From a virus (lineage: Duplodnaviria; Caudoviricetes), in the IMG/VR virus record IMGVR_UViG_3300036856_000017, positions 1 through 45,754 of that record: a stretch of 45,754 bases of DNA; one strand, given 5' to 3'. Both the position numbers and the translations under genes were made by a program. Positions 11,964 to 35,112 of the stretch are shown piece by piece (within the stretch, counting starts at the first letter, position 1; each line of letters starts with the position of its first letter). A model generated the notes under the pieces. That model was not told the origin of the DNA, did no database searches, and saw only the letters and a list, made by a program, of their open reading frames with translations.

Positions 11964-12152
11964 TTACGTGGTGGCGACGAGGGCGCGCTTCTCCCACGCC
12001 TCGACCTCGGTGAGCCGGTAGCGGACGAACTTGCCGCCGTCCGCGATGTAGGCGGGACCGCGCTTGTCGCGCCGCCACTCAGCGAGCGTCTGCCTGGAGA
12101 CGCGGAGCCGGTCGGCGAGTTCCTCGCTGGTGAGGTGACGGACGGGCGGCAT
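11964..12152 (-). CDS. xis: Excisionase/AlpA-like HTH_17 protein
   Basis: LTSEELADRLRVSRQTLAEWRR..RGPAY....VRYRLTEVEAW; TGATG coupling. Confidence 0.78.
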   Translation of the reverse strand: MPPVRHLTSEELADRLRVSRQTLAEWRRDKRGPAYIADGGKFVRYRLTEVEAWEKRALVATT

Positions 12153-12343
12153 CAGGACGCCTCCGTCGCGGGCACGACGCGGTTCCGCTCGATGTAGGCG
12201 GCAAACGACTCTTCGGTGATCCGCAGCGGGGCGTTCGGCGCACCGGAGGTCTTGATCGCGGCCAGCTCGCCCGAGCGGACGAGGTTGAAGACCGTCTTCT
12301 TGGTGACGCGCAGCCTGGCGGAGATTTCGTCGACCGTGAGCAT
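12152..12343 (-). CDS. HTH_17 DNA-binding protein (Cro- or Xis-like)
   Basis: MLTVDEISARLRVTKKTVFNLVRSGELAAIK; divergent from the repressor. Confidence 0.8.
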   Translation of the reverse strand: MLTVDEISARLRVTKKTVFNLVRSGELAAIKTSGAPNAPLRITEESFAAYIERNRVVPATEAS

Positions 12344-12516: not shown

Positions 12517-12870
12517 GTGAACATCCCGCTAGGTACAGCCATCAAGCGAGCGCGGGAGCGAAAGAGATGGACTCAGCGCCAGCTAGCCGCCGCGCTCGGC
12601 GTAAGCACGAAGACGGTCGACAACTGGGAAAACGGACGCACCACTCCGCAAAGCTCGATGGGTGCCCTAGAGGAGGTGCTCGGCATCGGCGCCGACCGCG
12701 AGCCGGAACCGGAGCTTGACCCCGGCCTGCTCGAAAAGATCCGCCAGACCATCCCCCCAGATGATCAGCAGCGCGTTATAGACGCGATCCTCGCGACGAT
12801 GCGCGGTACTCCCCCGAGCGGACCACCCGCAGAGGATTGGGGCGGGGCCTCGGGACGGAAGACCGGGTGA
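12517..12870 (+). CDS. XRE-family immunity repressor
   Basis: IKRARERKRWTQRQLAAALGVSTKTVDNWENGRTTP; divergent from the early operon and upstream of int. Confidence 0.88.
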   Translation: MNIPLGTAIKRARERKRWTQRQLAAALGVSTKTVDNWENGRTTPQSSMGALEEVLGIGADREPEPELDPGLLEKIRQTIPPDDQQRVIDAILATMRGTPPSGPPAEDWGGASGRKTG

Positions 12871-13264: not shown

Positions 13265-14623
13265 TTGATGGCGGTCTACGACCAGTGGCACAAGGCGCCG
13301 GCGCCTGGCGATGCCCCGTGCTCGTGCGGGACGCGCAAGAACCCGCTCTACCCGTCGTCGCGCCACAAGACGGGCAAGCGCTGGCAGGTCCGCTGGTACG
13401 AGCCGGACGGCAAGGTGAAGCAGCCGAAGAAGAACTTCGGCTTGCGCGTCGGCCGCAACCCGGAGGTCCACGCCGACGCGTTCAACGCACTGGTCGAGCG
13501 CCACATCGATGTCGAGGGCGGGTTCGACCCGGACGCGGGGAACATCACCTTCGAGGCGTACGCCGAGGACTGGCGCAAGACCCGCGGCGGCCTGGACGAC
13601 AACGAGGCCGCGGCGCTCGAGGGACGCCTCCGGCTGCACGCCTACCAGGACCCGGACACTCCCGGCCGCACGCGCCGCGGCGGCGTCAGTATCGGGCAGC
13701 GGAAGATGCGCGACCTGGCGAAGCGCCCGTCGCTGATCCAGGGCTGGATTCAGTCGATGCCGCTGGCGGAGGCGTCCGCGCGGCTGGTGGTCATGGACGT
13801 GTCGGCGGTGTTCCGGTCTGCGGTCGACGACGGGGCGGTGCCGCGCGACCCGGTGCGCGTGTCCAGCGTGGACCGGCCGCCCGCGGGGCGCACGAAGGCC
13901 CGGCCGTGGCCGCGTGAGCATGTCGTCGCGATGGCGGCGGCACTGGACCCGCGGATCGCCATCGTGCCGTACCTCGGCGCGGGGACCGGCGCGCGGCAGG
14001 GCGAGATGCTCGGGCTTGGCGCCGACGACATCCGGTTCCTCGGGCGCGACCCGCGGGTGAGCTATGTCCGCCAGGTGAAGATCGTCGGCCGGCGGGTATG
14101 CTTCGCCCCGCTGAAGAACGGCAAGGAGCACCGGCCGCCGCTGTCGCCGTCCCTTGCCGGCCGGCTGGCGGCGCACATGGCGGAGTTCCCGCCCGTGGCC
14201 GTGACGCTGCCGTGGTACGACCCGGACGACAAGGAGCGCCACGGGAAGCCGGTGACGGTGCGGCTGGTGCTGACGACGGCGGACGGCGGCGCGTGGCGGC
14301 GGGACGCGTTCAACCGGCGCTGGCGGGCCGCGCAGGAGGCCGCGGGGATCGTCACGCGGGAGCCCGGCGAGAAGCGCCCCGCGGCGCGGCAGGATGGCTG
14401 TCACGCGCTGCGGCACACGTACGCGTCGGCGCAGCTGCGGCACAAGGTGGACATCGTGCGGGTGGCGGCGTGGATGGGCGATGACCCGGAAACGGTGTGG
14501 AAAACCTACGCGCACCTGATGCCGGATCAGGACGACGACGACGGCCGGGAGGCGGTCGACGCGCTGCTCGCTCCGGAGCCACTTGCCCCGGATATGCCCC
14601 GTGAGGCGGATGGCGGCACGTAA
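13265..14623 (+). CDS. int: Tyrosine integrase
   Basis: TGARQGEMLGL (R), HALRHTYAS (HxxR), TYAH (Y); N-terminal GKRWQVRW arm-binding-type segment. Confidence 0.95.
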   Translation: MMAVYDQWHKAPAPGDAPCSCGTRKNPLYPSSRHKTGKRWQVRWYEPDGKVKQPKKNFGLRVGRNPEVHADAFNALVERHIDVEGGFDPDAGNITFEAYAEDWRKTRGGLDDNEAAALEGRLRLHAYQDPDTPGRTRRGGVSIGQRKMRDLAKRPSLIQGWIQSMPLAEASARLVVMDVSAVFRSAVDDGAVPRDPVRVSSVDRPPAGRTKARPWPREHVVAMAAALDPRIAIVPYLGAGTGARQGEMLGLGADDIRFLGRDPRVSYVRQVKIVGRRVCFAPLKNGKEHRPPLSPSLAGRLAAHMAEFPPVAVTLPWYDPDDKERHGKPVTVRLVLTTADGGAWRRDAFNRRWRAAQEAAGIVTREPGEKRPAARQDGCHALRHTYASAQLRHKVDIVRVAAWMGDDPETVWKTYAHLMPDQDDDDGREAVDALLAPEPLAPDMPREADGGT

Positions 14624-14773
14624 TGCCTGGCAGGAGCGGTGCGGATCACATTTTCATGATGTGGGCGGGGTGCAGGCCAGAGATTCAGTCCCTGTCTGAC
14701 CTGCCAGGATTCATATCTATTCTATGGTTTGCTATCGGGTTCATTCGGTTGCGCCTTGCCCCGGACTTGCCCC
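14582..14773. other. attP: core flanked by arm-type repeats
   Basis: CTTGCCCCGGATATGCCCC (14582-14600) and CTTGCCCCGGACTTGCCCC (14755-14773) flank CACAT-TTTCATG-ATGTG (14647-14663), an inverted repeat around a 7-bp spacer. Confidence 0.78.
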
Positions 14774-15010
14774 CGACCGCCAGCTGACGTATGTCCCGCT
14801 GCCGGGCAGCTTCGTCACCAGCTTGCGTTCGGCGAGTTCGTCGATGGCCTTGCGCATGGTCCCCTCGCCGACGTCGTGCTGATCAGCCAGCCCCCCGCGG
14901 ACCCGCAGCTGCGTGCCGAACGGCAGCTCGCCGGACTTGATGCGGTGCTCGATGTCGTCGGCGACCACTCGCCATTTGTAATCGATCGGCGCATCTTCCT
15001 GCTCTGACAT
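14741..15010 (-). CDS. GntR-family winged-HTH regulator (KorSA/TraR-like)
   Basis: VADDIEHRIKSGEL..GTQL....LA....V...TMRKAIDELAERKLV..LPGSGTYV; TACGGT -10 just upstream of the ATG. Confidence 0.88.
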   Translation of the reverse strand: MSEQEDAPIDYKWRVVADDIEHRIKSGELPFGTQLRVRGGLADQHDVGEGTMRKAIDELAERKLVTKLPGSGTYVSWRSGASPGQGATE

Positions 15011-15052
15011 GCGGCACACCGTAACTGGCACGTGACCAGCATAGATGACCGG

Positions 15053-15070
15053 GGCAGGCTTATACCTGCC
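15053..15070. promoter_or_regulatory. Inverted repeat between divergent promoters, candidate GntR operator
   Basis: GGCAGG-cttata-CCTGCC; nearby ATCCAG direct repeat. Confidence 0.45.
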
Positions 15071-15116
15071 GCGCCCCGTACTATCCAGCTACATCCAGGT
15101 GTTGTACGCTGCGCTC

Positions 15117-15311
15117 ATGGCCTGGCTACCATCATGCAACCACGAGCCCGCCGCCGACTCTCCGCCGCGCAAGTACGACGGCCAGGTAGGCAAGCAGCAG
15201 TACTCCGTGTGCAAGCTCTGCGAAAAGCCGATCGTCCTGTTCTCTGACGACGGCCGGTGGATGCAGTCGACCACGACGAATCACCCGTACCTCTCGCAGG
15301 CCGCTGAATAA
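15117..15311 (+). CDS. 64-aa Zn-ribbon-like protein
   Basis: CNH...CKLC; TACGCT -10 ending 6 nt before the ATG. Confidence 0.6.
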   Translation: MAWLPSCNHEPAADSPPRKYDGQVGKQQYSVCKLCEKPIVLFSDDGRWMQSTTTNHPYLSQAAE

Positions 15312-15387
15312 CTGAAGCGGGCCACCCGAGCGGATGAAAGCCGCCGGATGGCCCTAACCCGAACCTTGATCAAGCCAAGGATGGGCT

Positions 15388-16116
15388 GTGACAGAACTTA
15401 CCGACAATCGTCGAGAGCGCACAAGGGCTCTGGCCGCATGGCTCCAGGCGATTCCGAAACCTCGCTGGCCGCGGCGGTCCGACGTGCCCGCGGCCGCGCC
15501 GGGTGGCGTGGTGCTCCGGTTCCGGACGGCCGCCCTGTGGGCGATCGCCGCCCTGATCACCGCGGCGTCCGCAGCGTCGTTCAGCGAGTCCTACCGCGGG
15601 CTGCTGTCATGGGCGCTCCGGCATGGCCTCGCCGGATTCTGGGCCGCCGCCTTCCCTGTCCAGGTCGACACCTTCATCGCGGTCGGCGAGCTGGTGCTCT
15701 TCGTCGCGATGGTCGACCAGTGGGACTGGCCGAGAAAGCTCGGCGCGTGGGCGGTCGCGCTGCTCGGTCTCGCGATCTCGGTCGCCGGGAACATCGGGCA
15801 CCTGGCCGCCGCCGACCTCTCGTCACGTGCCACGGCCGGAGTGCCGCCGCTGGCCGCGTTCGCCGCGCTGTGGCTCGGGCTGACCGTACTGAAGAGCGTT
15901 ATCTCCCGCCGGGCGGAGCGGCCCGCTCCTGACACGGTGCTGCCCGAGGTGCCCACCGACAACGAGGTCGCGGCGCTCCTGGCGCTGAGAGCCACCACCT
16001 ACGCCGGGAATCCCCTTAGCGCGAGGGCACTGGAAGCGCAGTTTGGTTTGTCCCGTGCGCAGTCGACCAAAGTGCGTCAGCTCGTCCTTGCGAAGGTCAA
16101 CGGGAGCGCGCCGTGA
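15388..16116 (+). CDS. DUF2637/SpdA-like membrane protein of actinomycete conjugative elements
   Basis: About four TM segments with SFSESY..L...A, PVQVD, ISVAGNIGH and VPPLAA motifs; C-terminal HTH-like LSARALEAQFGLSR; GTGA-coupled to traB. Confidence 0.82.
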   Translation: MTELTDNRRERTRALAAWLQAIPKPRWPRRSDVPAAAPGGVVLRFRTAALWAIAALITAASAASFSESYRGLLSWALRHGLAGFWAAAFPVQVDTFIAVGELVLFVAMVDQWDWPRKLGAWAVALLGLAISVAGNIGHLAAADLSSRATAGVPPLAAFAALWLGLTVLKSVISRRAERPAPDTVLPEVPTDNEVAALLALRATTYAGNPLSARALEAQFGLSRAQSTKVRQLVLAKVNGSAP

Positions 16117-18197
16117 GTGACCAGCTGCCCGCCGTCCCAGATGACGAAGTGCTCGAGGGTGAAGTAGTCGCCAGCCCGCGCCACCCGGTGGCCAGGGTGG
16201 TCCGCGTGGTCGTCGTGGTGGTGCGTCACGAGCACGTCCAGCGCGGCGGCCGCCACATGGCCTACATCCCGCTCGGCGCCTATGTGGTCGGCCGGCGCAT
16301 CTGGGACGCCCGGACGACGGCCCGCTTTGAGAGGTACATCAGGGCGGCCGAGGCGGGCGGCGACCATGAGTCGATGGTCCGCTGGGAGGAGCTGCGGCAG
16401 AAGTTTTTGAACGACCGCCACAAGCGCCGGATGGAGCGGCGGCACTCGACACTGGAGGCGTTCCGGGCAGCGCCGTTCATCGCGGGCGGCACGGTCGGCG
16501 TCTTGGGCAGCATCGGCATCTTCATGGCCATCGCCGAGCACCGGTTCGGCGAGATCGCCGTCCCGTTCGTGGCGGTGGCGCACCTGGTCATGCTGGTCAT
16601 CCTCGTCGTGTCCGTGTCGTGGGGCCCGTTCGTGATCGGCGCCCCGTGGATCGGCCTCGCGATGCTGTGGTGGATAGGCAAGCGCCACGCGCAGGGCATG
16701 ACGGGCGGCTGGCTCGCCGCGGCGCAGCCGGACGGCGAGGACGGCGGCATGGTCGTGACGGCCGACACGATCGTCCTCGCCCTGCAGCACATGCCGGTAC
16801 CGGCGCTGAAGACGGCATTCAAGGACGGGTGGATACCGCAGTTCACGACGACGCCCGTCCGCGACGGCCAGGGCTACGAGGCCGAGTTCAGCGTCCCCCT
16901 CGGGGTGACGGCGGAACAGATTGCCGACGCGAACAAGGTGCTGGCCAGGAACCTGCACCGGGACGAACACGAGTCGTGGCCGTCCGCGGGGCCGCCGGGT
17001 TACGTGAAGCTGTGGGTGGCGGACCGGGGCGCGCTGAATCGCGCGGCACCGGAGTACCCGCTGCTGCACTCCGGCACGGCTGACGTATTCAAGGGCGTGC
17101 CGGGCGGGGTGACCGCCCGCGGGGATGAGATCGTCGCTCCTGTCGTCGGCAACAACGGCGTGCTCGGCGGCATGATGGGGCAGGGCAAAAGCAACGCCGC
17201 GCGGGTGCTGATGCTCGGCTGCGCCACTGACCCGATCTGCTCGCTGGACGCCTGGGTGTTCGCGAACAACGGCGACTTCGATGCCTACGCGCCGCGGCTG
17301 GCCCGGTATGAGAAGGGCCTCGACGATGACGTGATCGCCGCCGCCGTGGAGCGCCTGCATGAGCTGTACCGCTGGGTGGGCGAGCGTGAGGAGATGCTGG
17401 CCGACCTGGGTGCGAAGAAGGTCAGCCGGGAACTGGCCCAGCAGTACCCGGAGCTGCGCCCGCACGTCGCCCTGTTCAGCGAGTGCCACGAGCTGTTCGG
17501 CCACAAGGAGGACGGCAAGCTCTCCGACATGGCGAAGATGGCCGCTGAGCTGGTCATCAAGACCATCAAGCGGGCACGCAAGACGGGCATCGTCCTGTGG
17601 TTCGACACGCAGTCCAGCCGCAAGGAGGCCATCCCGCCCGCCCTCGTCGAGCTGGTGTCCGTCAACTGCTGTTTCGCCGTCAAGACGTGGCGCAGCAACG
17701 ATGGCTTCCTGGGTGATGGCAGCTTCCAGCGGGGCATCAGGGCGACGGAGCTGCGGCCGGGCCGGGACCGCGGCACGTCGCTCGTGACCGGTGTCAGCGA
17801 CGCTCAGTTCGAGCTGCTGAAGTGGTACTTCGTCGCGGTCGACGACGACACCGGGTTCGACGCGGCCGCCGACGTGATCAAGCGCTGCATGCAGCGCGTT
17901 GACCCGCGCACGCCGGTCGCCTCGAGCACGCCGGTCGCGATCGAGGCCAGGGACCTGCTGACAGACCTTGATGCCGTGCTCGGCAGCGAGCGCGCGCGCC
18001 TGGCCGACGTGCCCGCGCTGCTGCGGGACCTGGCGCCGCACTGGCCGGCGTACCGCACCGGGGCGCTGAACGGCGTGCGGCTGCGCGAGCTGCTGGACAA
18101 GGAAGGCGTGCGAGTGAAGACGACGGGCGGGATCCTGTGGCTGGATCCGCCGGACGTGCGCGACGTGCTCCGGCAGCGGAGTGAGTTGGATGACTGA
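16113..18197 (+). CDS. traB: TraB-type FtsK/SpoIIIE DNA translocase
   Basis: N-terminal TM hairpin, Walker A GMMGQGKS, Walker-B-like VALFSECHELF, ARKTGI...TQ motif, C-terminal wHTH-like domain. Confidence 0.9.
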   Translation: MSDQLPAVPDDEVLEGEVVASPRHPVARVVRVVVVVVRHEHVQRGGRHMAYIPLGAYVVGRRIWDARTTARFERYIRAAEAGGDHESMVRWEELRQKFLNDRHKRRMERRHSTLEAFRAAPFIAGGTVGVLGSIGIFMAIAEHRFGEIAVPFVAVAHLVMLVILVVSVSWGPFVIGAPWIGLAMLWWIGKRHAQGMTGGWLAAAQPDGEDGGMVVTADTIVLALQHMPVPALKTAFKDGWIPQFTTTPVRDGQGYEAEFSVPLGVTAEQIADANKVLARNLHRDEHESWPSAGPPGYVKLWVADRGALNRAAPEYPLLHSGTADVFKGVPGGVTARGDEIVAPVVGNNGVLGGMMGQGKSNAARVLMLGCATDPICSLDAWVFANNGDFDAYAPRLARYEKGLDDDVIAAAVERLHELYRWVGEREEMLADLGAKKVSRELAQQYPELRPHVALFSECHELFGHKEDGKLSDMAKMAAELVIKTIKRARKTGIVLWFDTQSSRKEAIPPALVELVSVNCCFAVKTWRSNDGFLGDGSFQRGIRATELRPGRDRGTSLVTGVSDAQFELLKWYFVAVDDDTGFDAAADVIKRCMQRVDPRTPVASSTPVAIEARDLLTDLDAVLGSERARLADVPALLRDLAPHWPAYRTGALNGVRLRELLDKEGVRVKTTGGILWLDPPDVRDVLRQRSELDD

Positions 18198-18241
18198 CGT
18201 ATCCCCGGATGCCGCCCTGGGGCATGCCGGACGAGGCCCGC

Positions 18242-18331
18242 CCCACTCGCGGAAACGACCCAACTCGGCCCACTTCCGCAGGTCAGCGGGGGTGTTGGCC
18301 GGTGATTCACATAGATGGAATATCCAACTCG
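18242..18331 (+). repeat. 8-bp imperfect direct repeats after traB, candidate clt/TRS
   Basis: CCCACTCG 18242, CCAACTCG 18260, CCCACTTC 18269, CCAACTCG 18324. Confidence 0.45.
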
Positions 18332-18352
18332 GAAACAGAGGAGACAACCCAG

Positions 18353-18553
18353 ATGAGCAAGCTCTCCAAGGAGACCAACGACAGGCTCGGCCGGATCATG
18401 GACCGGAAGGGAACCAATTCCCTCTCGAACAAAGAGATCCGGCAGGCTGTCGCGGCCGTAGACGACTCTGGCCACCTCGACGCGGCAGAGCACAAGTTCG
18501 TCAGCGAGCTGCAGGCCGCATTCGATGACGGGAAATTCCACGCCTGGCGGTAA
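18353..18553 (+). CDS. 66-aa hypothetical protein
   Basis: GAGGAG RBS. Confidence 0.7.
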   Translation: MSKLSKETNDRLGRIMDRKGTNSLSNKEIRQAVAAVDDSGHLDAAEHKFVSELQAAFDDGKFHAWR

Positions 18554-18581
18554 GCCGGGCCACGCAACAGGAGGTAACACG

Positions 18582-18728
18582 ATGGGACTGTTCAGCAACG
18601 ACCCGAAGTTCGAGGCGCTGCGCAAGATCCGCGAGGACGAGGGCTATGACGGGTGGCTCGACCAGAACAACAACAAGGTCAAGGACGTGGACAAGTGGGC
18701 CGAGGAGAAGAAGGGATGGTGGAAGTAG
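18582..18728 (+). CDS. 48-aa protein (MGLFSNDPK...GYDGWLDQ...)
   Basis: AGGAGG RBS. Confidence 0.72.
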   Translation: MGLFSNDPKFEALRKIREDEGYDGWLDQNNNKVKDVDKWAEEKKGWWK

Positions 18729-18730
18729 CC

Positions 18731-18934
18731 GTGGGCATCCGCAGCCAGCAGGTGGCGAAGCTCGCCGCCGCATACGAAGAGCGCGGCCGGGCTCTCAGCG
18801 AGTCCGGCAGGAACAGCGGCGCGTTCTACGACGCCGCACGGGCGGTCGGCAAGCTGCACGACTCCTCCACGGTAGCGGAGTGCGAGGCCGCGCAGGCGCA
18901 GGCCTACGGACGCCCGCAAGCGGAAGGGAGGTAA
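18731..18934 (+). CDS. 67-aa hypothetical protein
   Basis: GTG 2 nt after the previous stop. Confidence 0.6.
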   Translation: MGIRSQQVAKLAAAYEERGRALSESGRNSGAFYDAARAVGKLHDSSTVAECEAAQAQAYGRPQAEGR

Positions 18935-18938
18935 TCCG

Positions 18939-19157
18939 ATGGGATGGTTCAGCAGCAAGCCGGAGGAGCCCGCATCGCCGCCACGGCGGGACCGGGTCAG
19001 GCAGGTCATGCAGGCGTACATGGAGGAGTCCGACGCCGACCCGGACGGTCCCGGCGCCCGCGCTGCGGCGGAGAAGCTCAGCGCGGCGCGGCGCGGCGGA
19101 ACGACGGACGCCGAGTATCAGGCCGGGATCGCCGCGGCGCGGCGGAACGGCTACTGA
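18939..19157 (+). CDS. 72-aa protein (MGWFSSKP...)
   Basis: GGGAGG RBS. Confidence 0.72.
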   Translation: MGWFSSKPEEPASPPRRDRVRQVMQAYMEESDADPDGPGARAAAEKLSAARRGGTTDAEYQAGIAAARRNGY

Positions 19158-19192
19158 GATGAGAGCGTGCGGCGGCTGATAGCGCCGCGCGG

Positions 19193-19226
19193 GCCCGCCC
19201 CGGATCGCGAGTCCGGGGCGGGCTTT
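19193..19226 (+). terminator. Intrinsic terminator closing the tra operon
   Basis: GCCCGCCCCGGA...TCCGGGGCGGGC followed by TTT, between convergent genes. Confidence 0.75.
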
Positions 19227-19971: not shown

Positions 19972-20868
19972 CTACGCCGTGATCCTGAGCGATGCGTGCG
20001 GCGGGGCCACGCTGCCCCCGTCGGCCCACACCCGGATCTCGTACTGCCATCCCCTGTGCAGCTTGATGGTGCCGGTCGTTCCGGACACGGCTCCCGGCAC
20101 GATCACGCCGTTGTCCTGCACCGCCTCCAGTGTGTACCCGCTCGGCGTCTTGCTTCCTCCCACGGCCGGTGGCGCGCTCCACGTGAAGTTCCGGATCACC
20201 TCGGTCCCCTCGGCAAGGTGCGCCGGGGCGGCGAACTGGTCGCCCGCGGGCACCGGAGCGGGGGGCGCAGCGCCCGGCCGCGGCCACTGGCCGAAGTCAT
20301 CGCCAGGGCCGAGCACCTTGATGCTGTGCCAGAATGCCGCCTGGTTGACGTCAACGGTAGCCGGGCCGACGTGGACGTTATAGGACACCTGGCGGATGTC
20401 CGCGCGCGGATCCCAGGCGCCGCCCGAGCCGCCCGACGTCTGCCACCCGTACCGGATCACGCCGGAATCGAATAGCGACTTGATCACGGAGTACTGCCCG
20501 TACCCGCCGCTGCGCGCAAGTCCGATGACGCCGTTAACCCCGCGCATGTAGGCGACCGGGTTGGTACCGGCCGCCACGGGGACGTCCTGAGCGAAGAACA
20601 CGGTGGCGCCGGTCGCGCCGACGCGGGCAAGCTCGGCCTCGGCCGCCTTGGCGTCCGTGACGCCCTGAGCCTGCGTGTACTCGTTGCCGGTGGTCTCCCA
20701 GACGAACACGACCGGGATCCCGGCAGCCTTGTAGTTGGCGACTTCAGCCGCGCTGATGTCTTTGCTGTTCCCGCCAGACAGGTAGCGGCAGACGTAGTGG
20801 TATCCGGCTGCCTTGATCTGCGCGGCGGTCAGCCCGCCGCCGAACGAGAAGTCGATTCCGAGAAGCAT
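19972..20868 (-). CDS. Endolysin: DUF1906/GH25-like glycoside hydrolase with FN3-like C-terminus
   Basis: GIDFS...IKAAGY..VCRYLS...VVFVWET...FFAQD...WQT...VDVN; Pro linker; FTW.AP...GYTL...YEIRVWA. Confidence 0.87.
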   Translation of the reverse strand: MLLGIDFSFGGGLTAAQIKAAGYHYVCRYLSGGNSKDISAAEVANYKAAGIPVVFVWETTGNEYTQAQGVTDAKAAEAELARVGATGATVFFAQDVPVAAGTNPVAYMRGVNGVIGLARSGGYGQYSVIKSLFDSGVIRYGWQTSGGSGGAWDPRADIRQVSYNVHVGPATVDVNQAAFWHSIKVLGPGDDFGQWPRPGAAPPAPVPAGDQFAAPAHLAEGTEVIRNFTWSAPPAVGGSKTPSGYTLEAVQDNGVIVPGAVSGTTGTIKLHRGWQYEIRVWADGGSVAPPHASLRITA

Positions 20869-22547: not shown

Positions 22548-23047
22548 CTCGGCTTCTGGAGAAGATCCGCCAATGCGCCAGGGGTGACGAATCCCGGCCA
22601 GCGCCCGTCGTCGAACAGCTTCATGCCCGCAGCGGCATATGCCGCATCGCAAAGTTGCGAGCAGATCATGTGGCCCGACGACGCCACGTACGCCTTCAGG
22701 AAGGGCAGCGGCAGATGCAGCCGGTGAGCGACCAGCGCGAAGTAGTCGACGGCGCTGTACGGCGTGCCGACGTAGCCGTGAGCCGCCTTGATGATGTCCT
22801 GCCGCTGTTGGTCCGTCAGCGGGATCTTGCCCGATGACCACAGGACGTCGCTGTAGTGCAGCGGCACGAGGGCCGCGCCGCCGGGCTCGGCCTCCACGAT
22901 CTGGCCGCCGCCGACGAACACGAACGCGTGCTCGTAATCCTCGCCGCCGTCGCCGTTGAGCAGCTGCCCGAACCTGATCAGCTTGCCGACGTCGCCGGAG
23001 ATCTGCGTCAGCCCGAAATCGCCCGGCTGCGGATCCGTGCGGCCCAT
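22544..23047 (-). CDS. Permuted NlpC/P60 papain-like amidase
   Basis: QPGD...YEHA...IVEAEPGG...GTPY...ICSQL with His before Cys; TGATG coupling. Confidence 0.85.
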   Translation of the reverse strand: MGRTDPQPGDFGLTQISGDVGKLIRFGQLLNGDGGEDYEHAFVFVGGGQIVEAEPGGAALVPLHYSDVLWSSGKIPLTDQQRQDIIKAAHGYVGTPYSAVDYFALVAHRLHLPLPFLKAYVASSGHMICSQLCDAAYAAAGMKLFDDGRWPGFVTPGALADLLQKPR

Positions 23048-25077
23048 CAGTCCAGCCACCATTTCCACGTCGGCGCGGCGCTGTAGGTCAGTGCGACGGT
23101 GCCCCCGGCCGGGACGTCGATGATCGGGTTCACGGTGCTGCCCGACTGCATCGCGGTGCCGTTGACCGAGATGCCGGTGACGGTGCCGGTGACATAGACC
23201 GTGGCGTCGCGCCACGACGTGTTCGTCGCCGCGACAGTGGTCGCCGGGACAGCGGGAGCACCGGACCAGAGGCCGCGCGGCCTGCCGTCGTTGATGACTT
23301 TCAGGCCTGCCGCGCCGATGACGATCGGGTCGCGGCCGTCCACCGTGTTGCTCCAGTGGATCTCACCAAGGAAGGCGTTGCCCGGGTCGGAAATGTCGAA
23401 GCCGCCGCCGCCGGATGCTGTCGCGGACGTTTCCGTCGCCCACTCGCCGATGTGCACAACGGCCTTCCCGGTGCCGCCGCCCAGGTATTCCATACCGCCC
23501 TGGTAACCCTCGGCGGTCACGTGGTTGATAGTCAATCCGTGACCGCTAGTGCTATCGGTGACTGACACGATCCGGGCCGCATAGAGGGCCTTCAGGACAT
23601 CGATTTTCGTATGCTCCGATGGGCCGGAAATGCTGGTGCGGAACCCAGATGACTCGAAGCTGGACAGGAAGCTGTCCGCGTTGTTGCCCTTCACCGGCAG
23701 CCGCAGGCCGCATCCCAGGCGGCTCCCGAAGATCGTGGAGTCGTTGAAGATACTCAGCAGCAACGGTCCTGTGCCCTCCGCCGCCTGAGCGAACACCTTG
23801 GCAGAGCAGCCCCCGCCCCCGATGCCGGTGGCGTAGCTGAAGTCGAATGCCGTGACGTTGGTGTACACCGGTGCGACGACCATAATGTCGCGGAACACCG
23901 GCTTGACGTTGACGAACGTCGGGCTGATCGCGCCCGCCATACCGGACTCCGGGGTCGGGGTCCCGAAGACACTCTGGAACCCGTACGTCGCGTCGGCAGT
24001 GGACGGGGCGGGCTTCATCGACACGACCGCCGACCCGGCGACGTTCGGGATCGTACTGTTCCAGTAGTCGTTGTGGTCCACGACGCCGGCGCCCTTGAAG
24101 GCGAGGACGAGCTTGCGCCCGTTGTTGTTCGATGGGGCCGGGATGGGGATCTGCGCGTTGTAGAGCGCGGTGCCGTCGTTGGACTGAGTCAGGCCCGCGA
24201 CGATGTAGATCGCGTCGGAGAACAGCACCTCGGCGTAGTAGTCGTGCGCCTCGGCGTAGGTCTTCGCCGCCGCGACAGCGGCGTTGATCGCCGTGTTGAC
24301 GTCCGTCCCGAAAACCGCGTTCAGGCCGGTCGCGGTCGCGGTGATCGCGATCGGGGTGCCGTCGATCGTGACGGAGGTCCCGCTGATGGCGGTGATCGTC
24401 CCGATCGCCGCCGAGTCGACCCCGCGCGCCCCGTTGATCATGACCCACTGGCCGACGATCGCCGCCGCCGAGATCGTCGCGGACGTGAACGTGTCGGTCC
24501 CGTTCGTCGCGACGTCCGTGGCGATCTTGCCGTAGGTCACGCTTCCGTGATCCTCCGGCCGGAACTGCCACGGCCGGAACTGCGGCGGCACGTTGCCCAG
24601 CTCGTTCGCGGGCACCTGCCCGGAGCCGTCCACGCTCGCCGCGCCCACGTCGGACGCGATGAGGGTGACCGCGCCGGTCTTCCCGTTCACGGACGACACG
24701 CCGCCGCCGCCAGCGGTGCCTCCGGCGGCGACCAGCGCCGAGAGGTCCACGGTCTCCCCGAGGCTGCTCGGCAGCTGGATCTTGTACGTGCGCTGCGCCC
24801 ACCCGGTGATCTTCTCCGTCACCGTGTACTGGAAGCCGGACGGGTTCAGGTCCGCATTGTCGGTGCAGGGCAGCGTGATGCCGGACATCCCGTTCGTCAT
24901 CAGCTGCCCGTTCGACACCCCGGCGACAGCGGGGCCGCCGAAGGCGACCTTGCCGGTGCTGTCGGTAATCACGCCGCCGGGGTCGAACGTGACCGTCCCG
25001 CCGGACGCGGGAGTGCCGTCAATGCTGAAGTATGAGCCGGTAACCAGGATCGCGGTCAGGTCCCCAGGCAGGGCCAT
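23047..25077 (-). CDS. Tail fibre/spike, probable receptor-binding protein with beta-helix-like region
   Basis: VSSVNGKTGAVTL linker; GTD...AINAAV beta-helix entry motif; Gly/Thr-rich; last tail gene. Confidence 0.78.
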   Translation of the reverse strand: MALPGDLTAILVTGSYFSIDGTPASGGTVTFDPGGVITDSTGKVAFGGPAVAGVSNGQLMTNGMSGITLPCTDNADLNPSGFQYTVTEKITGWAQRTYKIQLPSSLGETVDLSALVAAGGTAGGGGVSSVNGKTGAVTLIASDVGAASVDGSGQVPANELGNVPPQFRPWQFRPEDHGSVTYGKIATDVATNGTDTFTSATISAAAIVGQWVMINGARGVDSAAIGTITAISGTSVTIDGTPIAITATATGLNAVFGTDVNTAINAAVAAAKTYAEAHDYYAEVLFSDAIYIVAGLTQSNDGTALYNAQIPIPAPSNNNGRKLVLAFKGAGVVDHNDYWNSTIPNVAGSAVVSMKPAPSTADATYGFQSVFGTPTPESGMAGAISPTFVNVKPVFRDIMVVAPVYTNVTAFDFSYATGIGGGGCSAKVFAQAAEGTGPLLLSIFNDSTIFGSRLGCGLRLPVKGNNADSFLSSFESSGFRTSISGPSEHTKIDVLKALYAARIVSVTDSTSGHGLTINHVTAEGYQGGMEYLGGGTGKAVVHIGEWATETSATASGGGGFDISDPGNAFLGEIHWSNTVDGRDPIVIGAAGLKVINDGRPRGLWSGAPAVPATTVAATNTSWRDATVYVTGTVTGISVNGTAMQSGSTVNPIIDVPAGGTVALTYSAAPTWKWWLD

Positions 25078-25107
25078 GTGTGATGTCTCCTCAGTGATGC
25101 GGGCCGG

Positions 25108-26070
25108 TTAAAGGGGCGTGCCGACCGAGTACAGGCCGGATCCGATGGCGAAGCTCGCGGTGGTGGCGAACCCGAAGCAGCTGACGACTCCGGCGGAACT
25201 GACCCGCAGGGCCGCGCTCTCGTTGTTGTAGCCGGACAGGATCCGCTGCCGGTCAGTGTGGGCGTACAGCACCCGGTCTGCCGGCGGGCAGTAGGCCGCG
25301 GGCAGGGGATGGCCGAGGACCGTCGTGCCGTCGGCGGTGTAGGTGCCCCCGGCCGTGGTCAGGTTGAACTCGGCGAAAACGATCCCCGGAAAGACGAATT
25401 TGTACCGGAAGAAGTTCGGGGCAGTGTGGGCCGTCCAGCCGGGGACGCCGTCGCCGCCGTCCTGCCACGTGTCGGCCCGGTAGACGGTCTGCCACGCCGC
25501 GCCGGGCGCGTCAGACATGAGCAGGTTGCCGGTGTCCGGCTGGATCAGCAGGCTTGCCCGGTCCAGGACCGGCGTCCCCGCAGTGGACGGCATCACCGCG
25601 ATCGGGCTGCTGATCTTCAGCCGCTCATCGACGAGGGCCGACAGTGACCCGTCCAATCCGGTGGTCCAGTGCGCGATCGGCAGGTCCCAGAGGCCGGTGC
25701 TGGTCTGCGTGACCGCGGGGATAGCCGGGGTCGGCGCCGGAGTGCCCGTGATGACGGTCGGGACGATGAACCCCGCTGCGGTGGACGCGGCCCGGTTCAG
25801 CCGAAGCACCAGGCGGTCAATCCGGTTCTGCGATGACGCCGCCGGGATCGACGTGTACGTCGGCGTGCTGACGGGCTTGTAAAACGCCCGGACGATCGCG
25901 CCGCCCGGCTGGATCACGACGTTTCGGCCGGAGTCGTCCAGGCTCGGCAGCATCTCCGAGCCCTCGCCCGGGATGATGCCGGAGCCCATCGCCGGATGGA
26001 AGAACTCCTCCCACTGGCCGACCGTCGACATCGCGGAGATGCCTGGCACTGGATAGGCGTCGTCTGCCAT
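25108..26070 (-). CDS. Minor tail protein
   Basis: NRIDRLVLRL...WDLPIA...LVDER N-terminal module. Confidence 0.8.
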   Translation of the reverse strand: MADDAYPVPGISAMSTVGQWEEFFHPAMGSGIIPGEGSEMLPSLDDSGRNVVIQPGGAIVRAFYKPVSTPTYTSIPAASSQNRIDRLVLRLNRAASTAAGFIVPTVITGTPAPTPAIPAVTQTSTGLWDLPIAHWTTGLDGSLSALVDERLKISSPIAVMPSTAGTPVLDRASLLIQPDTGNLLMSDAPGAAWQTVYRADTWQDGGDGVPGWTAHTAPNFFRYKFVFPGIVFAEFNLTTAGGTYTADGTTVLGHPLPAAYCPPADRVLYAHTDRQRILSGYNNESAALRVSSAGVVSCFGFATTASFAIGSGLYSVGTPL

Positions 26071-27267
26071 CTACGGTGTCCTCTTCTGCAGCTCGTTGAT
26101 CTTGCGCTTCACGATGGTCAGCTGGTTGGTCAGGTCGTTGGCGCTGGCGGTCTGCGTCGTGGTGCCTACGTTGAACTGGATCAGCCGCGTCCCGGCCGAC
26201 GCGTCCGCCTCGATGTGCACGGAGCTGATCACGTCCGTGATGACCGTCCCCGGGCGCGTCGGGTCCACGATCGTCACGATGTCGCCGCGCCTCACCGTCT
26301 GCGGGTAGCGCACCTGCGGCGTCTCCACGATCGTCACGTTGCGGGCGTACTGGCGGCGCCCCGCGGTGAGCGCAGCCTGCCCGGCCTGCGTCATCGTCGC
26401 CGCGTCCGACGTGCTCGAGGAGTCCACCGCCTGGCGCACGATCATCCGCCACGACTGCGCCGAGACGCTGTCGTCGACTTCGGTCACCACCTGCGCCGCG
26501 CCGGTTCCCGCGCCGAGCACCACCGCATGGGTGAGCGTCGGCATTGAGACGGTGCTGTCGATCGTGGTCAGCGTCCCGGCCTCGCGGGAGAACCGCATCC
26601 GGCTCGTGAGGTCGCGCGGCTCGTAGACGTCGAACACCAGCGTGGAGCCCGACTGGAGCACCTCGGCGCCGAGGTTGGAGCCCGCGTTCGAGATGGTCTG
26701 GATGATGTCCAGCAGGCCATTGAACCGGGCCGTGAACGAGACGGTGTCGCCGCGGCCCTGGTCGGTGGCGACGGTCACCGTCCGCGCCAGCGGGGCGCTC
26801 GCGTCCCCGCGCGCCGTCGCCCGCGTGCTGCCCACGTTCGCGGCCACGTAGTGCTTGATGACCGTCTCGGCGGCATGCGACGTCTGCACGTCCTGGTAGG
26901 TGCTGCCCGACTGCCCGGTCGCGTTCAGCGCCGGGTTCGGGTAGGCGATCTCGTTCGCGACGATCACCAGGTCATCTGCGCCGGTGACGGTGATCGTTCC
27001 CGGACCGCCGTCGCTGGCGGCCGTCCAGGACCGCGGGCCGTCGTCCTCAATGGGACCCGACAGCAGTTCCTGTCCCCAGCGCAGCAGGATCACGCCCCAG
27101 CCGGGGCCGATCTTGTCCAGCACTGACGGGATCGCGGGCAGCGTCAGCGTCCAGGCCGACACGTCCGCGTGCCGGTGGTCCAGCACCAGCGTCTTCCACG
27201 GCAGGTAGCCGCGCCGGACCAGGTCCGGGTCCCGGCTGATGACCTGCCACTCCTGCGAGCTCACCAT
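26071..27267 (-). CDS. Minor tail/baseplate hub protein (Gp37/Tal-like)
   Basis: Position after Dit; AETVIKHYVAANVG, FDVYEPRD, GDIVT. Confidence 0.82.
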   Translation of the reverse strand: MVSSQEWQVISRDPDLVRRGYLPWKTLVLDHRHADVSAWTLTLPAIPSVLDKIGPGWGVILLRWGQELLSGPIEDDGPRSWTAASDGGPGTITVTGADDLVIVANEIAYPNPALNATGQSGSTYQDVQTSHAAETVIKHYVAANVGSTRATARGDASAPLARTVTVATDQGRGDTVSFTARFNGLLDIIQTISNAGSNLGAEVLQSGSTLVFDVYEPRDLTSRMRFSREAGTLTTIDSTVSMPTLTHAVVLGAGTGAAQVVTEVDDSVSAQSWRMIVRQAVDSSSTSDAATMTQAGQAALTAGRRQYARNVTIVETPQVRYPQTVRRGDIVTIVDPTRPGTVITDVISSVHIEADASAGTRLIQFNVGTTTQTASANDLTNQLTIVKRKINELQKRTP

Positions 27268-28187
27268 GCGCCGAGATACCTCGGCGCGAACGTCACCGTG
27301 ACGCTGCTGGCGGCGGTCGCGCCGGTCACCGTGATGGCCAGGTTCGTGTCACCCGGCGGCAGCGTCCAGAAATCGGGGTAGTCCGCCAGGTGCGGCCACC
27401 AGTCCGTGCCCGTCTGGTCAGTGGCGGTCAGTCCCGTCAGCGGGGCGAGCTCGACCGGCCGGCAGTCCACGGTCACGGTCGTGCCCGATCCGATCGCCGC
27501 GGTGAACGCGTACGACTGGCCGGTGTCGGCGTTCTCGATCGTCACCGTACCGGGACCGGTGATCGACCAGACGGGATAAGCGTCGGTGTCGCCCGGGTTC
27601 GTGACCGCGCTCGAGCCGATGACCGCGCCGGAGCCGAGCAGCACCGGCGGCATCGGGGGCACCCCGGCCGAGGACGGGGCGAGCTGCCAGGTCCGGCTGA
27701 CCGCGTCGCCTTCCCATGTCGGGACCGGCGCGTAGAACTGCAGGTTCGGCAGCGCGCACCATCCCGCGGCCACGTCGTCGACGTCGGATTCGGTCGGCGT
27801 CGCGCCGCCCTGGTAGTACGCGGCCAGCGACCGCGCCGAGGCGTCCGGCAGCTGCACGGTGACGCGGCCCGGCACCGGCAGCCCTGTCGCGGAGTCCACC
27901 GGGTGGCGCAGCGTCGCCTGCAGCGCCCGGAGCCGCGCCAGGTAGGTAGCGGCGTCCGGCCCCATCACGTACAGCGGGACGGTCATCAGGCGCGGCTGGA
28001 CGCGGTGCGTGCGCACCAGCGAGGACCCGTCCCACATGGCGTCACTGACGATCTGAGCGTCCACCGGGCCGAATCCGGTCCGGCCCGTCGTGCTGATGTA
28101 GCCGCCCTCGCTGTCGGTCAGGCCGATCGTCACTCCGGCCGCGCTCGTCCACGAGATGGCCTTCGATGCCCAGTCCGCCACCGTCAC
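27261..28187 (-). CDS. Distal tail protein (Dit-like)
   Basis: Immediately after the tape measure; NPGDTDAYPVWSITGP, FWTLPPG. Confidence 0.82.
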   Translation of the reverse strand: MTVADWASKAISWTSAAGVTIGLTDSEGGYISTTGRTGFGPVDAQIVSDAMWDGSSLVRTHRVQPRLMTVPLYVMGPDAATYLARLRALQATLRHPVDSATGLPVPGRVTVQLPDASARSLAAYYQGGATPTESDVDDVAAGWCALPNLQFYAPVPTWEGDAVSRTWQLAPSSAGVPPMPPVLLGSGAVIGSSAVTNPGDTDAYPVWSITGPGTVTIENADTGQSYAFTAAIGSGTTVTVDCRPVELAPLTGLTATDQTGTDWWPHLADYPDFWTLPPGDTNLAITVTGATAASSVTVTFAPRYLGAW

Positions 28188-31100
28188 CGCCTGGCCAGGC
28201 GCACCTGGCGCGAGGCCATGGTCAGCGCGTTCTCGATGTCCGCCTGCGTCGTGAAGCCCGGCACGTGGTGCACGTGCATCTCGCCGACAAGCGGGCCGTC
28301 GCCGCCCCTGGTGCCGAGCGCCGCGGACTGCTCCGGGGAAAGGATCTGGCCGGGCCGGTCGAACATGGCCAGCTCGGGACCGCGGTCGCCGGTAACCATG
28401 AGCTGCCCCGCGGCGAACTTGCCGCCGTGCCCGTAGTGCGGGAGCTTGCTCGCCGGGACGCCCAGCCAGCGGGCGACCTCCCGGCCCATCGTGGCGCCGA
28501 GGCTCTTCATCTGCTTCTCCAGCGCCGCCTGCTGGGACTTGAATCCGTCCACGACCGCCGACCCGTACACGGCGACCGCGGCACTGTGCGCCACGCTTCC
28601 GGCGGCGGCGTTGATGGCCGAATCGGCGGCGTTGATCTGCTTGATGACCGACGATCCGCCGGACAGCATCGCCTGCGCGTAGGTGTAGCCGTCATCCGGA
28701 CCGAGGGCTACGACCTGCTGGATCAGCGACGCCGACAGCCCGGCCTTCCGGAGCTGGCCGAGTGCCCCGGCGAACTTGCTCAGCTGGGCAAGCTTCGCCT
28801 GGAGCTGGGGCGCGAGGCCGCCGCCCTTCTGGAACGGGTCGACGGTGAGGTTCGACAGGGCGCCGTAGCCGGACAGGCTGGAGGCCACCGACGACTGATA
28901 GGACGCGGCGGCGTTGTGCTGGCTGGTCAGCGTGGACAGCTTGTTCACCAGGCCGGTCAGCTGCCTGGACTGCCCGGCGATGACGTTCTCCGCCCATGCC
29001 GCCGGGCGCCCGCTGTAGTACTTCTGGATCGCCTTGACGGCGGCGGACTGCTCGGCCGCGATCTTGCTGAGCGTGGTGACGGTGCCGGACAGGTACGCGT
29101 CGACAACAGGCAACGCGGTATTCTGCTCGGCAGTCCTCGCGGACGCGCGCCGCTTCGCCGCGGCCGCTTCTGCCCGGTCCGCGGCAGCTTCCACCGCCGC
29201 CGCGTGCCGTTCCGCCGCGGTCAGCGTCCCGGTGGCATACCCGGCCATGCCGCTGGCTGCCGCGCGCATCGAGTCGCCGTGGGACAGGACCGTCTCGCCA
29301 CCGTGGAAGTTCACGAGCTCCCGGCCCTGCTCGCCGACCCATGCCCAGCCGGGCCTGGCACCCGGGGTGCCCTTCGCGTACCAGTTGAACGCCTGCTCGT
29401 GCGCCCAGGCCGCCGCCGGGCTGCCGTACCGCTGCGCGATATAGTCCAGCAATCCGATGGCCTGCCCCTGAGCCGTGCTGGGATTGCCTCCCGGCCACTG
29501 GTCGTACCAGCTCGGGCCGGTGATGCCCTGGGCGATTCCGTACGCGCCAGACGACGGGTTGCGGGCGTTCAGGTTCCAGCCCGCCTCGCGCATCTCAACG
29601 GCATTCAGCGCGTTCCACTGCGCGCCGGTCCAGCCCCGGGCGGCGGCCATCTGCTGCACCAGCTTCTGGACCGCGCCCGCCGAGCCTCCCGCGGCAGCCG
29701 CCGCCGCAGCTCCGAGGCCGCCGAGGCCGGTAAGCGGGGAGCCGCCGCTGCCGAAGAGCGAGCCGAGCGCGGACAGGGCCTTCGCTGGCAGGTTCGTAAG
29801 GGACACCATGCCCTTTTGCGCGATCGCGCCGAGGGCGTTCGGCATGCTGCCGAAGATCTTCTTGACCATCCCGGTGACGTCGTGGCTCATCATGCCCTTG
29901 AACAGGCCGGACATCAGGTGGCTGCCGAGCCCGGCCATGACGGTCGATGGGGACTTGATGCCGAAGAAGCTCTTGACCGCGCCGACGATCGGGTCGACGA
30001 TCGTGGACTTGATCCAGCCGCCGATGCCCCGCATGGCGCCGCTAATGCCGCCCAGCAGGCCACGGATGATATCGCCGCCGTGGCCGGTCAGCCAGCTTCC
30101 GGCTTTGGCGAAGTTGCCGATGATCCAGCCGCCGATTTTCGTGATCCAGCTCCACGCGGCAGCCCACTGCGCCTTCTGCCCGTTCCAGAGGCCCGAGATC
30201 ACGTCACGTCCGTGCCCCAGGAGCCACGACGCTGCCTTAGCGAAGGCCGACCCTATCCAGCCGCCGATCTTGGTCACCCACGACCATGCCTGTGCCCACT
30301 GCGCCTTCTGGCCGTCCCACAGGCCCCGGATGATGTCGGTGCCCTTGGACAGCAGCCAGGAACCGGCCTTCGCGAAAACGCTGCCGATCCAGCCGCCGAT
30401 TTTCCCCAGCCAGGCGAATTCGAGTTCCCATTCCATCTTCGCCCCGCCCCAGAGGCCGCCGAGGATGTCACCTCCGGCCTTGAGCAGCCATTTTCCGGCC
30501 TTGATGAACGGGGCGGCCATCCACTCGTTGATCTTGCCCAGCCAGCGCAGCAGGAACGAGAGGCCGTCCTCCGCCCCGTACCACAGGCCGAGGAGGATCG
30601 ATTCGCCCTTGCTCACGAGCCAGTCCTGCGGCTTCGCGAAATAGGCGAGGATCTTTTCGCCGAGTGGGCCGAACAGCTTCTTGAGGATCCCGCCTAGCGC
30701 GGACTCCATCATGGTGCCGGCCTTCTCCAGCGGGCCCAGGAACACCTTCAGCAGCGGGCCGAGAAAGGGGATCTTGTCGAAGATCTGCAGGATGAGGCCG
30801 CCCACCCGGCCGATCGGGATGATCGACGAGAGGAAGAGCAGCATGTCCATCGGGTGATGGATCGCCTCGGAGATGAGCGCCATCGGGAGCTGGACGACGA
30901 GCCCGACCGCCAGGCCGACGGCCACGTTCGCGAAGGCTTTCCCCATCGACGTCCAGTTGATCTTGCCCAGCAGCGTCAGGAACGCGGCGCCGATCTTCTG
31001 CGCGCCGGTGACGGCGGAGCTGATGATGTTGGAGAAGACCTGCCCCCAGTCGATCTTCTTGACCGCATTCATGATGGTGTCGATGAAGCTGGGGGGCGCC

Positions 31101-32698: not shown

Positions 32699-32718
32699 GA
32701 CCGGGGACCTCCTCTCCG

Positions 32719-33281
32719 CTATTCAGATTCCGGCGTCCACACAGGACGTCCCTCGCGCTCGAGGCGCTCGCGTTCCTCGTCCTCCAGCCGCAGCCGGTAT
32801 TCCGCCATCCACTCGGTGAGCTCGGCCGAGTCGACGCGGGCGAGCAGTTCCCGGACGGTGCAGCCGAGCTTCTCGGCTAGCTGGAAGTAGAACCGTCGCT
32901 CGGGTCGTCCTCGGAGGGTTTTCCCATCTCCTCCACGTCGTCCTCGTTGATCCGGGACAACTTCGCGGCGACCTCGAAGATGCGGTCGAGCGCGGCGGCC
33001 GACTTCTTCCCCAGCGCGCTCACGTCCTGATCGGAGAAAATCCGCTCGCCCTCGTCATCGACGACGGATCGGGCCACGAGCTTGGCGCGGATGTTCGCCG
33101 CGTTGCGGACCATATTTTTGCCGCGCTGCTGGTACATCGACGACTCAAACGCGTCGCGCTCGGTGCCTGTCAGTGCCCGGACGCGGACCGTCCCGCCCCA
33201 CTCGGGGACGTCCATGTCCTCGTACTCCATGTCGTCCGCGTCGAGGATCGCGGCACGGGACAGCAGTGGTGATTTCGCCAT
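32719..33281 (-). CDS. Tail assembly chaperone (short form stops at 32877; long form made by -1 frameshift)
   Basis: VPEWGGTVRVRALTG; slippery G GGA AAA at 32925-32919; -1 frame reads GKTLRGRPERRFYFQLAEKLGCTVRELL...ELTEWMAEY to a stop at 32719. Confidence 0.9.
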
Positions 33282-33399
33282 GGTGGTTCCTTTGCATGCG
33301 GGATGGTTGCGGGAATGCGGGAGGCAGAACCCGCCAGGACGGCGCCCCGCCGCTCACCGGTCCCGCGGCCGGATCGCGGCATGCCGCCCTGGCGGGGCT

Positions 33400-34355: not shown

Positions 34356-34358
34356 GGC

Positions 34359-34682
34359 TTATTCTCCTGTCTCGTTCTGCCCGCCCGGCGGCGGGACGTC
34401 TTGCGGGGAAGGATCTGCGGGCGGGGACTGCGGGATGCCGTACGTGCCGGTCACCGGGTCGGGCACCGCGGGCGCGGGGTCAGGCGCGGGCGCCGCGGGC
34501 TGCGGGAGATCCTGCGGCGCCGTCGTCGTCGGCGCTGGCTGCACGGGCTGCGGCGGCGGCGCGGGCTTCGGCGGTGCGATCTCTGTCCAGCCGCTGCGCA
34601 GGTGATGGGCGAGCGCCGAGCGGGCGATCCGCGCCCGCAGGCGGGTGACCGGATGCTCAACCCAGGTCCAGTCGCCGTCCAT
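34359..34682 (-). CDS. Small protein with Pro-rich tail
   Basis: Short domain ending SGWTEI then Pro/Ala/Thr/Gln low complexity; TGATG coupling. Confidence 0.72.
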   Translation of the reverse strand: MDGDWTWVEHPVTRLRARIARSALAHHLRSGWTEIAPPKPAPPPQPVQPAPTTTAPQDLPQPAAPAPDPAPAVPDPVTGTYGIPQSPPADPSPQDVPPPGGQNETGE

Positions 34683-35020: not shown

Positions 35021-35112
35021 TGAGAGCCTTTCAGGGTAGGTAGCTGCGCCGGTGAACCACCGGACGGCGGGGCGCGTCTTACTGACCGGGAGCACGGAAG
35101 GACGGGGCGATC

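Follow-up and report, generated by a model that had tools for sequence, protein, structure and literature searches.

We have analysed a window of 45,754 nucleotides, comprising the whole of IMG/VR record IMGVR_UViG_3300036856_000017, and identify it as the genome of a temperate tailed phage by its TerL, portal, HK97 capsid, tail, lysin, integrase (Int) and CI genes. Between the putative phage attachment site, attP, and the lysin gene lies a module centred on tra, a gene for a 694-aa ATPase which belongs with the Tra proteins of plasmids and of integrative and conjugative elements from actinomycetes (AICEs) and not with chromosomal FtsK. By analogy with the actinomycete plasmids, this module is probably an AICE-related transfer cassette for virion-independent movement of DNA by the TraB/clt mechanism, clt being the transfer locus that acts in cis. 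A conserved repeat element directly after the tra stop codon, overlooked in a preliminary description of the window, is likely the site at which the predicted pump docks.

Tra and the clt-like element

The tra reading frame contains no stops over its 694 codons and, as claimed in the preliminary description, encodes a membrane-anchored ATPase of the FtsK type. Two transmembrane (TM) segments are predicted, by hydropathy only, at residues 122-140 and 148-166, the Walker A motif is intact (GMMGQGKS) and Walker B reads LFSE (codons at 17473-17493). The predicted model matches the FtsK motor (Foldseek 6t8o, E 1.3e-9), with structural matches to both FtsK and TcpA at VIA Z scores of 20-22 (2ius: Z 20.4, rmsd 5.2, 321 aligned). 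Pfam FtsK (PF01580) gave no match in the ATPase, the only family match being phrog_1358 at E 2.3e-7. The last 87 residues (608-694) are confidently modelled (pLDDT 89) with a helix-strand-helix-helix-hairpin topology, suggesting a winged-helix-like domain.

Relatives of the ATPase number 681 at E<=0.001 among the 7,994 candidates scored. The protein shows 36% identity with pCM32 Tra across 358 aa (E 1e-58) and 28% with pSVH1 TraB across 310 aa (E 5e-24). Single-sequence searches of IMG/VR, cultured phages and PDB sequences returned nothing, whereas the alignment search did find IMG/VR loci. The comparison with chromosomal FtsK proposed in the preliminary description placed the protein among the AICE Tra proteins: in a 66-row tree, the window shares a clade of support 100 with 17 AICE-type loci, to which pCM32 Tra is sister and outside which FtsK lies, and forcing the family together with chromosomal FtsK was rejected (p-AU 0.020). 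The trees consisted of a FastTree analysis and a 22-row IQ-TREE run, in which long branches limit the deeper order, and excluded 12 frameshifted or partial loci, L063 and the duplicates L005 and L009. The ratio of non-synonymous to synonymous substitution (dN/dS) against seven relatives and in two other pairs was 0.31-0.64, values given little weight because synonymous sites are near saturation at a third-position GC content (GC3) of 0.92.

In most family members, CTAAC/CTCAC-type repeats surround a GCAGGTCA core straight after the tra stop, and the window carries the corresponding repeats around a CCGCAGGTCAG core. The position and repeats of the element fit clt as it is described in the accessible parts of PMC4447253 and PMC3583192. 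A profile trained only on the post-stop DNA of 51 GTDB loci has a single match in the window (18174-18333, 20.5 bits, E 3.5e-5), the best score in 10 resampled genomes being 5.5 bits. The same profile matches pCM32 just after its tra (55.8 bits) as well as 70 of 80 metagenome loci and, at 64 bits, G032, and gave no match in pSVH1, pJV1 or ZL12. An earlier profile, which included the last tra codons, matched beside tra in 10/10 viral records as well as in L012 and L013. No clusters of perfect 8-bp direct repeats were found in the module. The six matches to the degenerate repeat pattern in the element are the genome maximum; this count is not independent, as the pattern was picked after seeing the loci, and the profile test is therefore relied on instead. 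Three or more repeats are present in 105 of 134 loci, and among these the repeat type may follow the recognition helix: two residues beyond the predicted helix start stands Gly in 55/61 CTAAC-type and Ala in 17/27 CTCAC-type loci, a pattern which is suggestive only, since related loci do not count as independent. An Amycolatopsis subgroup (L049, L051, L053) has TTCCCT/TCCCT repeats downstream of tra and a different predicted recognition helix.

The preliminary description had called for a search for other genomes combining phage genes with traB, and such genomes exist. The module was found at 14 IMG/VR loci, with TerL nearby or on the same record in seven (G003, G004, G007, G008, G010, G049 and L009=L021) that span three PHROG terminase families; other virion or lysis genes occur at six further loci, and L007 is unverified. 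One of the seven, G004, is a complete 53.9-kb relative (TerL 71%) in which tra spans the origin of the record. Terminase, portal and capsid genes also accompany tra in the complete assembly of pPaSha2, from a cultured Pseudonocardia. Most copies lie between integration/immunity and lysis/tail genes, those of G008 and L021 being upstream of terL. Of the 53 loci contributed by GTDB, 19 have a Rep of AICE type no more than 10 kb away and at least 6 have virion genes, the rest being unclassified by a limited query set. Within the 15-row subclade holding the window, virion genes are near 12 rows, which suggests long residence in phages.

Two smaller elements also carry the module. G001 (L004), 16,056 bp with direct terminal repeats, encodes a D5 primase, integrase, Tra, a clt-like site, a tape-measure-like protein and a head protease; no TerL match was obtained in it with the TerL of the window as query. 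L193:1700-15230 (G043), integrated beside host genes, encodes a D5 primase, integrase, Tra, a clt-like site, a capsid gene and a weak TerS. Both may be phage satellites that have a conjugation route of their own.

Assembly of the module was examined in sequencing runs. In run X1, possibly the source of the record, positions 9000-17515 and 17486-27000 are on two contigs which overlap inside tra, with 0 differences. Run X2, from another soil sample with another study code, contains a near-identical strain; the X1 and X2 studies share year and habitat and may be one campaign. One X2 contig starts within the latter half of tra and reaches 19782, and a second picks up at 19761 and continues as far as the tail genes. 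Of the read mapping proposed in the preliminary description, the right-hand part holds, 19230 and 19970 being bridged in X2, whereas the X2 gap at 14642-14773 spans the left-hand point, 14700. The reading frames, described previously as undamaged, are intact in X2 also. Seven tra codons differ in this strain, six synonymously, and 8/9 changed bases are within a 34-bp tract. The small share of run X3 counts as no evidence. Differences in X2 cluster in short tracts, 16322-16355 and 18838-18843, as expected from recombination with related modules.

Proposed transfer and alternative explanations

In the proposed mechanism, the cassette would, without virions, transport phage DNA in double-stranded form between hyphae or across the cross-walls of one mycelium. 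By analogy with pSVH1 TraB, as presented in the accessible text of PMC4447253, Tra would form a membrane hexamer, its C-terminal winged-helix-like domain would bind the CC[A/C]ACT repeats and ATP hydrolysis would pump the DNA. The DNA moved would most likely be the phage circle, either excised or from a new infection, with replication by the phage initiator (3491-4723) in place of an AICE Rep; as a second possibility, the integrated prophage might leave with flanking chromosome by cis-mobilisation, which the part of PMC11571958 available presents as a hypothesis for AICEs. Lysogeny would be established in the recipient by Int and CI. The location of the cassette beyond attP, with its own upstream region, would put it at a prophage end and may permit expression apart from the lytic genes. 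In transfer the phage is predicted to behave as an AICE does, and in all else as a temperate phage.

As stated in the preliminary description, the module does not appear to be a separately inserted AICE, since the window has one integrase, with no second one found, and no AICE Rep match. RepSA, RepAM and Prim-Pol gave no match in the record; the positive controls of the RepSA and RepAM searches gave no signal and the record is linear, at CheckV 55%, so that absence of an AICE Rep is not proven.

Several observations weigh against a transfer function. Both transfer and expression of the module are predictions. Walker B is of the form hhhhSE, not hhhhDE, in 53/53 intact family rows, AICE-type loci included, and Ser likewise replaces the Mg-binding Asp in 31/31 aligned proteins; as this form is common to AICE-type loci, it is a clade trait and not decay. 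Motor activity in the clade is nevertheless a prediction, and the winged-helix call consists of topology together with non-significant Foldseek matches, mostly to winged-helix proteins (best E 0.16). The clt-like element of the window scores below most of its relatives. The GntR regulator lacks a UTRA domain, and an int-attP-GntR arrangement occurs without tra in another phage, G016. The module is accessory: among 28 records selected on their TerL or integrase, three carry a Tra, as do 2/10 near-complete ones, one of these two having come up earlier in the tra search. Excision of a prophage with CI and Xis normally commits it to lysis, and no stable plasmid state is evident, as ParA/AAA_31 gave no match in the record, which may be incomplete (control positive in 14/14). 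Finally, the left junction of the module is bridged by the probable source run only.

A rather unlikely alternative is that the pump acts only within its own mycelium, spreading phage DNA across cross-walls to adjoining compartments after infection or induction, and so raises burst size or lysogenises the colony with no mating. This would require no lysis-free excised state, and the DUF2637-like gene of the module matches a PHROG family, phrog_733. Furthermore, the accessible parts of PMC4447253 suggest that SpdB2 homologues on phiC31 and VWB might aid the spreading of phage DNA, and link TraB to intramycelial spread. However, the pairing of tra with a clt-like element seen in AICE-type loci is fully kept in the module, and tra plus clt is the minimal set for between-strain transfer in pWTY27 according to the portion of PMC3583192 available; nor are use within a mycelium and use between strains mutually exclusive.

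That the module is a moron with another job is more doubtful again. Such a job might be host chromosome mobilisation, inhibition of neighbour growth (Kil/pock effect), or a part in exclusion or defence for a membrane ATPase whose Walker B is altered. The occurrence of the module, which is accessory, patchy and at the place between attP and lysis where morons usually sit, would suit such a job, as would the non-canonical Walker B itself. Distant FtsK-like genes are also present in 51 Mycobacterium phage records, from hosts not known for TraB conjugation. Yet the identical Walker B is found in AICE-type loci with RepAM or Prim-Pol, and hence is no phage-specific change, and the cis element, needless for a protein-only function, is kept in every tested phage copy of the clade.

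That the module is a recent accidental capture or remnant of an AICE from which the phage gains nothing, or else a chimeric join of the assembly, is very improbable and largely refuted, for although X2 leaves 14642-14773 unbridged, 13 family loci are frameshifted or partial and the record is linear at CheckV 55%, the GC3 of tra (0.92) resembles that of the phage genes (0.88-0.95), the frames survive in a second strain, virion genes accompany most of the subclade and many phages unrelated to one another use the same slot, as does the complete assembly of an isolate.

We therefore return to virion-independent transfer by Tra and a clt-like site as the favoured reading. If the cassette works, virion receptors would not by themselves determine which hosts these soil phages reach and how they spread, and prophages, like AICEs, would be among the agents that drive large-scale exchange of DNA between actinomycetes. 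A wider proposition is tentative, and we hold it with somewhat less than even confidence: integrating phages from filamentous actinomycetes and satellite-like elements may be widespread self-conjugating viruses which have repeatedly taken up AICE Tra and clt, the prophage, possibly with chromosome, being passed between mycelia without receptors, lysis or virions, and the element may be the first defined clt of this Tra clade, with repeats that vary with the predicted recognition helix.

Integration region, module genes and phage backbone

The features of the window are collected in Table 1. The arm-type repeats of the putative attP, TGCCCCGGAN{1,2}TGCCCC at 14584 and 14757, are the sole two in the window, with 0 in 100 shuffles, and a similar arrangement was found after the related integrase of G016. 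With one guessed 23-nt core, possibly wrong, and up to 2 mismatches, attB was found in 0/301 genomes of the order of G015.

Table 1. Features of the 45,754-nt window
Feature	Position	Strand	Evidence or remarks
Virus record (whole window)	1-45,754		linear, CheckV 55%, soil origin
Phage-type replication initiator	3491-4723		phrog_2447
Excisionase-like helix-turn-helix (HTH) protein (phage)	12152..12343	-	phrog_2907 E 7.9e-7
CI-like repressor	12529..12870	+	PF01381 E 3.9e-12
Tyrosine integrase, only one found	13268..14623	+	PF00589 E 1.2e-7; phrog_1 single match
Putative attP, two arm-type repeats (14584-14600, 14757-14773) flanking unassigned core	14584..14773		
Short HTH-only GntR regulator	14741..15010	-	PF00392 E 1.8e-12, no UTRA match
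88-aa open reading frame (ORF), CxxC present	15045..15311	+	no Pfam or PHROG match
DUF2637-like membrane protein, 4 predicted TM segments	15388..16116	+	PF10935 20.4 bits; phrog_733 E 1.4e-6; hydropathy
Predicted TraB/Tra-type FtsK-fold DNA translocase, 694 aa: 2 TM, motor domain, C-terminal winged-helix-like domain	16113..18197	+	
clt-like element, CC[A/C]ACT repeats around core	18174..18348	+	conserved directly after tra stop
Small ORF 1, 66 aa	18353..18553	+	GGAG-type ribosome-binding site (RBS); no family match
Small ORF 2, 48 aa	18582..18728	+	GGAGG RBS; X2: 3 synonymous, 2 non-synonymous codon changes
Small ORF 3, 67 aa	18731..18934	+	X2: 5 synonymous, 2 non-synonymous codon changes
Small ORF 4, 72 aa	18939..19157	+	GGAGG RBS; in-frame 3-base deletion in X2
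14-bp GC-rich hairpin, terminator-like, no U-tract	19192..19224		RNA fold
Endolysin, first gene of lysis/tail block adjoining module	19972..20868	-	PF08924 E 3.9e-17; phrog_13480
Virion operon: tail fibre, Tal, Dit, tape measure, tail tube, head-tail adaptor, two glycosyltransferases, protease+capsid, portal, TerL, TerS	23047..45666	-	

The divergent GntR gene beside attP is present as described previously, whereas its assignment to KorSA/TraR is not supported. The GntR is HTH only (89-96 aa), while a UTRA domain is present in TraR of both pSVH1 and pJV1; pCM32 also has a short GntR without UTRA. Short GntR genes stand divergently in front of tra in G002, G007 and pCM32. G016 (L098:8770-9650) is a complete 38-kb phage with the closest integrase found (57% identical), and carries int, similar attP arms and two short GntR genes at the same place but no tra, from which it follows that the GntR gene of the window may belong to the attP cassette. 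It may accordingly be either a repressor of the module or part of an int/attP cassette.

The label of 'Zn-ribbon' formerly given to the 88-aa ORF was not borne out, as no family matched. Assignment of the following gene as DUF2637/Spd-like stands in part: its product has four predicted TM segments and a weak DUF2637 match, 20.4 bits against a cut-off of 22.8, which is passed by tra-neighbour proteins in G001, G003, G004 and G007, whereas homology to SpdB2 is unsupported, BLAST finding no similarity to pSVH1 SpdB2, which itself has no Pfam match. The GTGA overlap through which this gene was said to be coupled to tra is present at 16113-16116. The four small ORFs and a closing hairpin are likewise present, but its description as a terminator is less secure, the hairpin lacking a U-tract and being unlisted by the terminator scan. 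A promoter scan detected none in front of the operon.

The left side of the record contains RecE/RecT, RusA, the replication initiator, Xis, CI and the tyrosine integrase, and the right side the lysin, tail, head and terminase genes, Pfam and PHROG searches identifying TerL, portal, protease+capsid, tail tube, tape measure, Dit/Tal and endolysin. The host is likely a filamentous actinomycete of Streptosporangiales or a neighbouring group, the nearest Tra relatives being from Trebonia, Streptosporangiaceae and Actinomadura. The two contigs of run X1 sum to almost exactly the record length, so the ends may be physical genome ends despite CheckV 55%. Both ends (1-500; 45670-45754) are rich in short GTCAC/GTGAC/GTTAG-like words.

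The prohead protease and major capsid protein share a single 907-aa open frame (38915-41638), and two glycosyltransferase genes (37005-38857) lie directly after the capsid gene. In G004, a similar glycosyltransferase gene and a nucleotide-sugar epimerase gene occupy the same slot. These genes possibly serve virion glycosylation.

Comparison with known systems

The concept of a conjugating phage is not new, the precedent being plasmid-phage pZL12, or phage ZL12, of Streptomyces, reportedly described by Zhong et al. in J Bacteriol in 2010. A conjugative prophage in Streptococcus is said to be the subject of one study, and one study reportedly deals with tandems of phages with integrative and conjugative elements. 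Like the window, ZL12 (GQ919031) has a tailed-phage genome with an FtsK/SpoIIIE-like gene (pZL12.71c) and a GntR gene. ZL12 is, however, 90 kb in length, carries parAB and GntR-UTRA and is maintained as a plasmid, whereas the window is ~46 kb, with no parA match and with Int/Xis/CI and attP-like arms. The Tra of the window is unrelated in sequence to that of ZL12, with no tblastn match in the phage collection and a long separate branch in the tree, and ZL12 is without the clt-like element. With no parA match, the window does not appear to be a pZL12-type phage-plasmid. Conjugal transfer of pZL12 needs a tra gene and two neighbours, as given in the available part of PMC3583192, and pZL12 is also cited in the accessible texts of PMC4487206 and PMC5431353, the latter dealing with an integrating plasmid-phage in Nonomuraea for which TraB is not mentioned in that text. 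A literature search mainly outside subscription journals, supplements excluded, found no description of integrating actinophages with TraB and clt.

AICEs, represented by pCM32 and the 19 GTDB loci with a Rep, share with the window the Tra family, a DUF2637 neighbour, a short GntR and the conserved element after tra. They include the pMEA100/pSE211/SLP1-type clades, with RepAM or Prim-Pol replication, as presented in the part of Ghinet et al. 2011 (PMC3218068) accessible, and PMC9513070 points out that the model AICE pSAM2 has had no clt described. The window differs in having a full virion and lysis set and no AICE Rep match, and in its gene order, the integrase being upstream of tra as opposed to the att-tra-rep-xis-int order in AICEs. 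The window is not an AICE.

The TraB/clt/Spd/TraR systems of pSVH1 and pJV1, as far as they are covered in the accessible parts of PMC4447253, in which traB is the only gene crucial for transfer of pSVH1, resemble the module in their membrane-anchored FtsK-type translocase with a small C-terminal domain, adjoining repeat site, four-TM partner and divergent GntR. They differ from it in sequence, TraB identity being 28%, in their GntR-UTRA regulator, in a partner, SpdB2, to which that of the window is not alignable and in Walker B, which is SE in the window and not DE. Their sites consist of perfect 8-bp direct repeats, whereas the window has degenerate 5-6-mers, which flank a core and occur in both orientations.

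The cultured counterpart is pPaSha2 (CP052773.1, L095) of Pseudonocardia alni Shahu, a 41.9-kb circular tailed-phage genome deposited as a plasmid. Its Tra is of a sister clade (32% identity) and it has no clt-like element (3.8 bits). In common with the window, it has an integrase, a DUF2637-FtsK gene pair with a 4-nt overlap, here next to a holin gene, RecE/Bet and an HK97-type head. The candidate docking site of the window has been narrowed to ~170 bp, and pPaSha2 supplies a cultured host of the same architecture.

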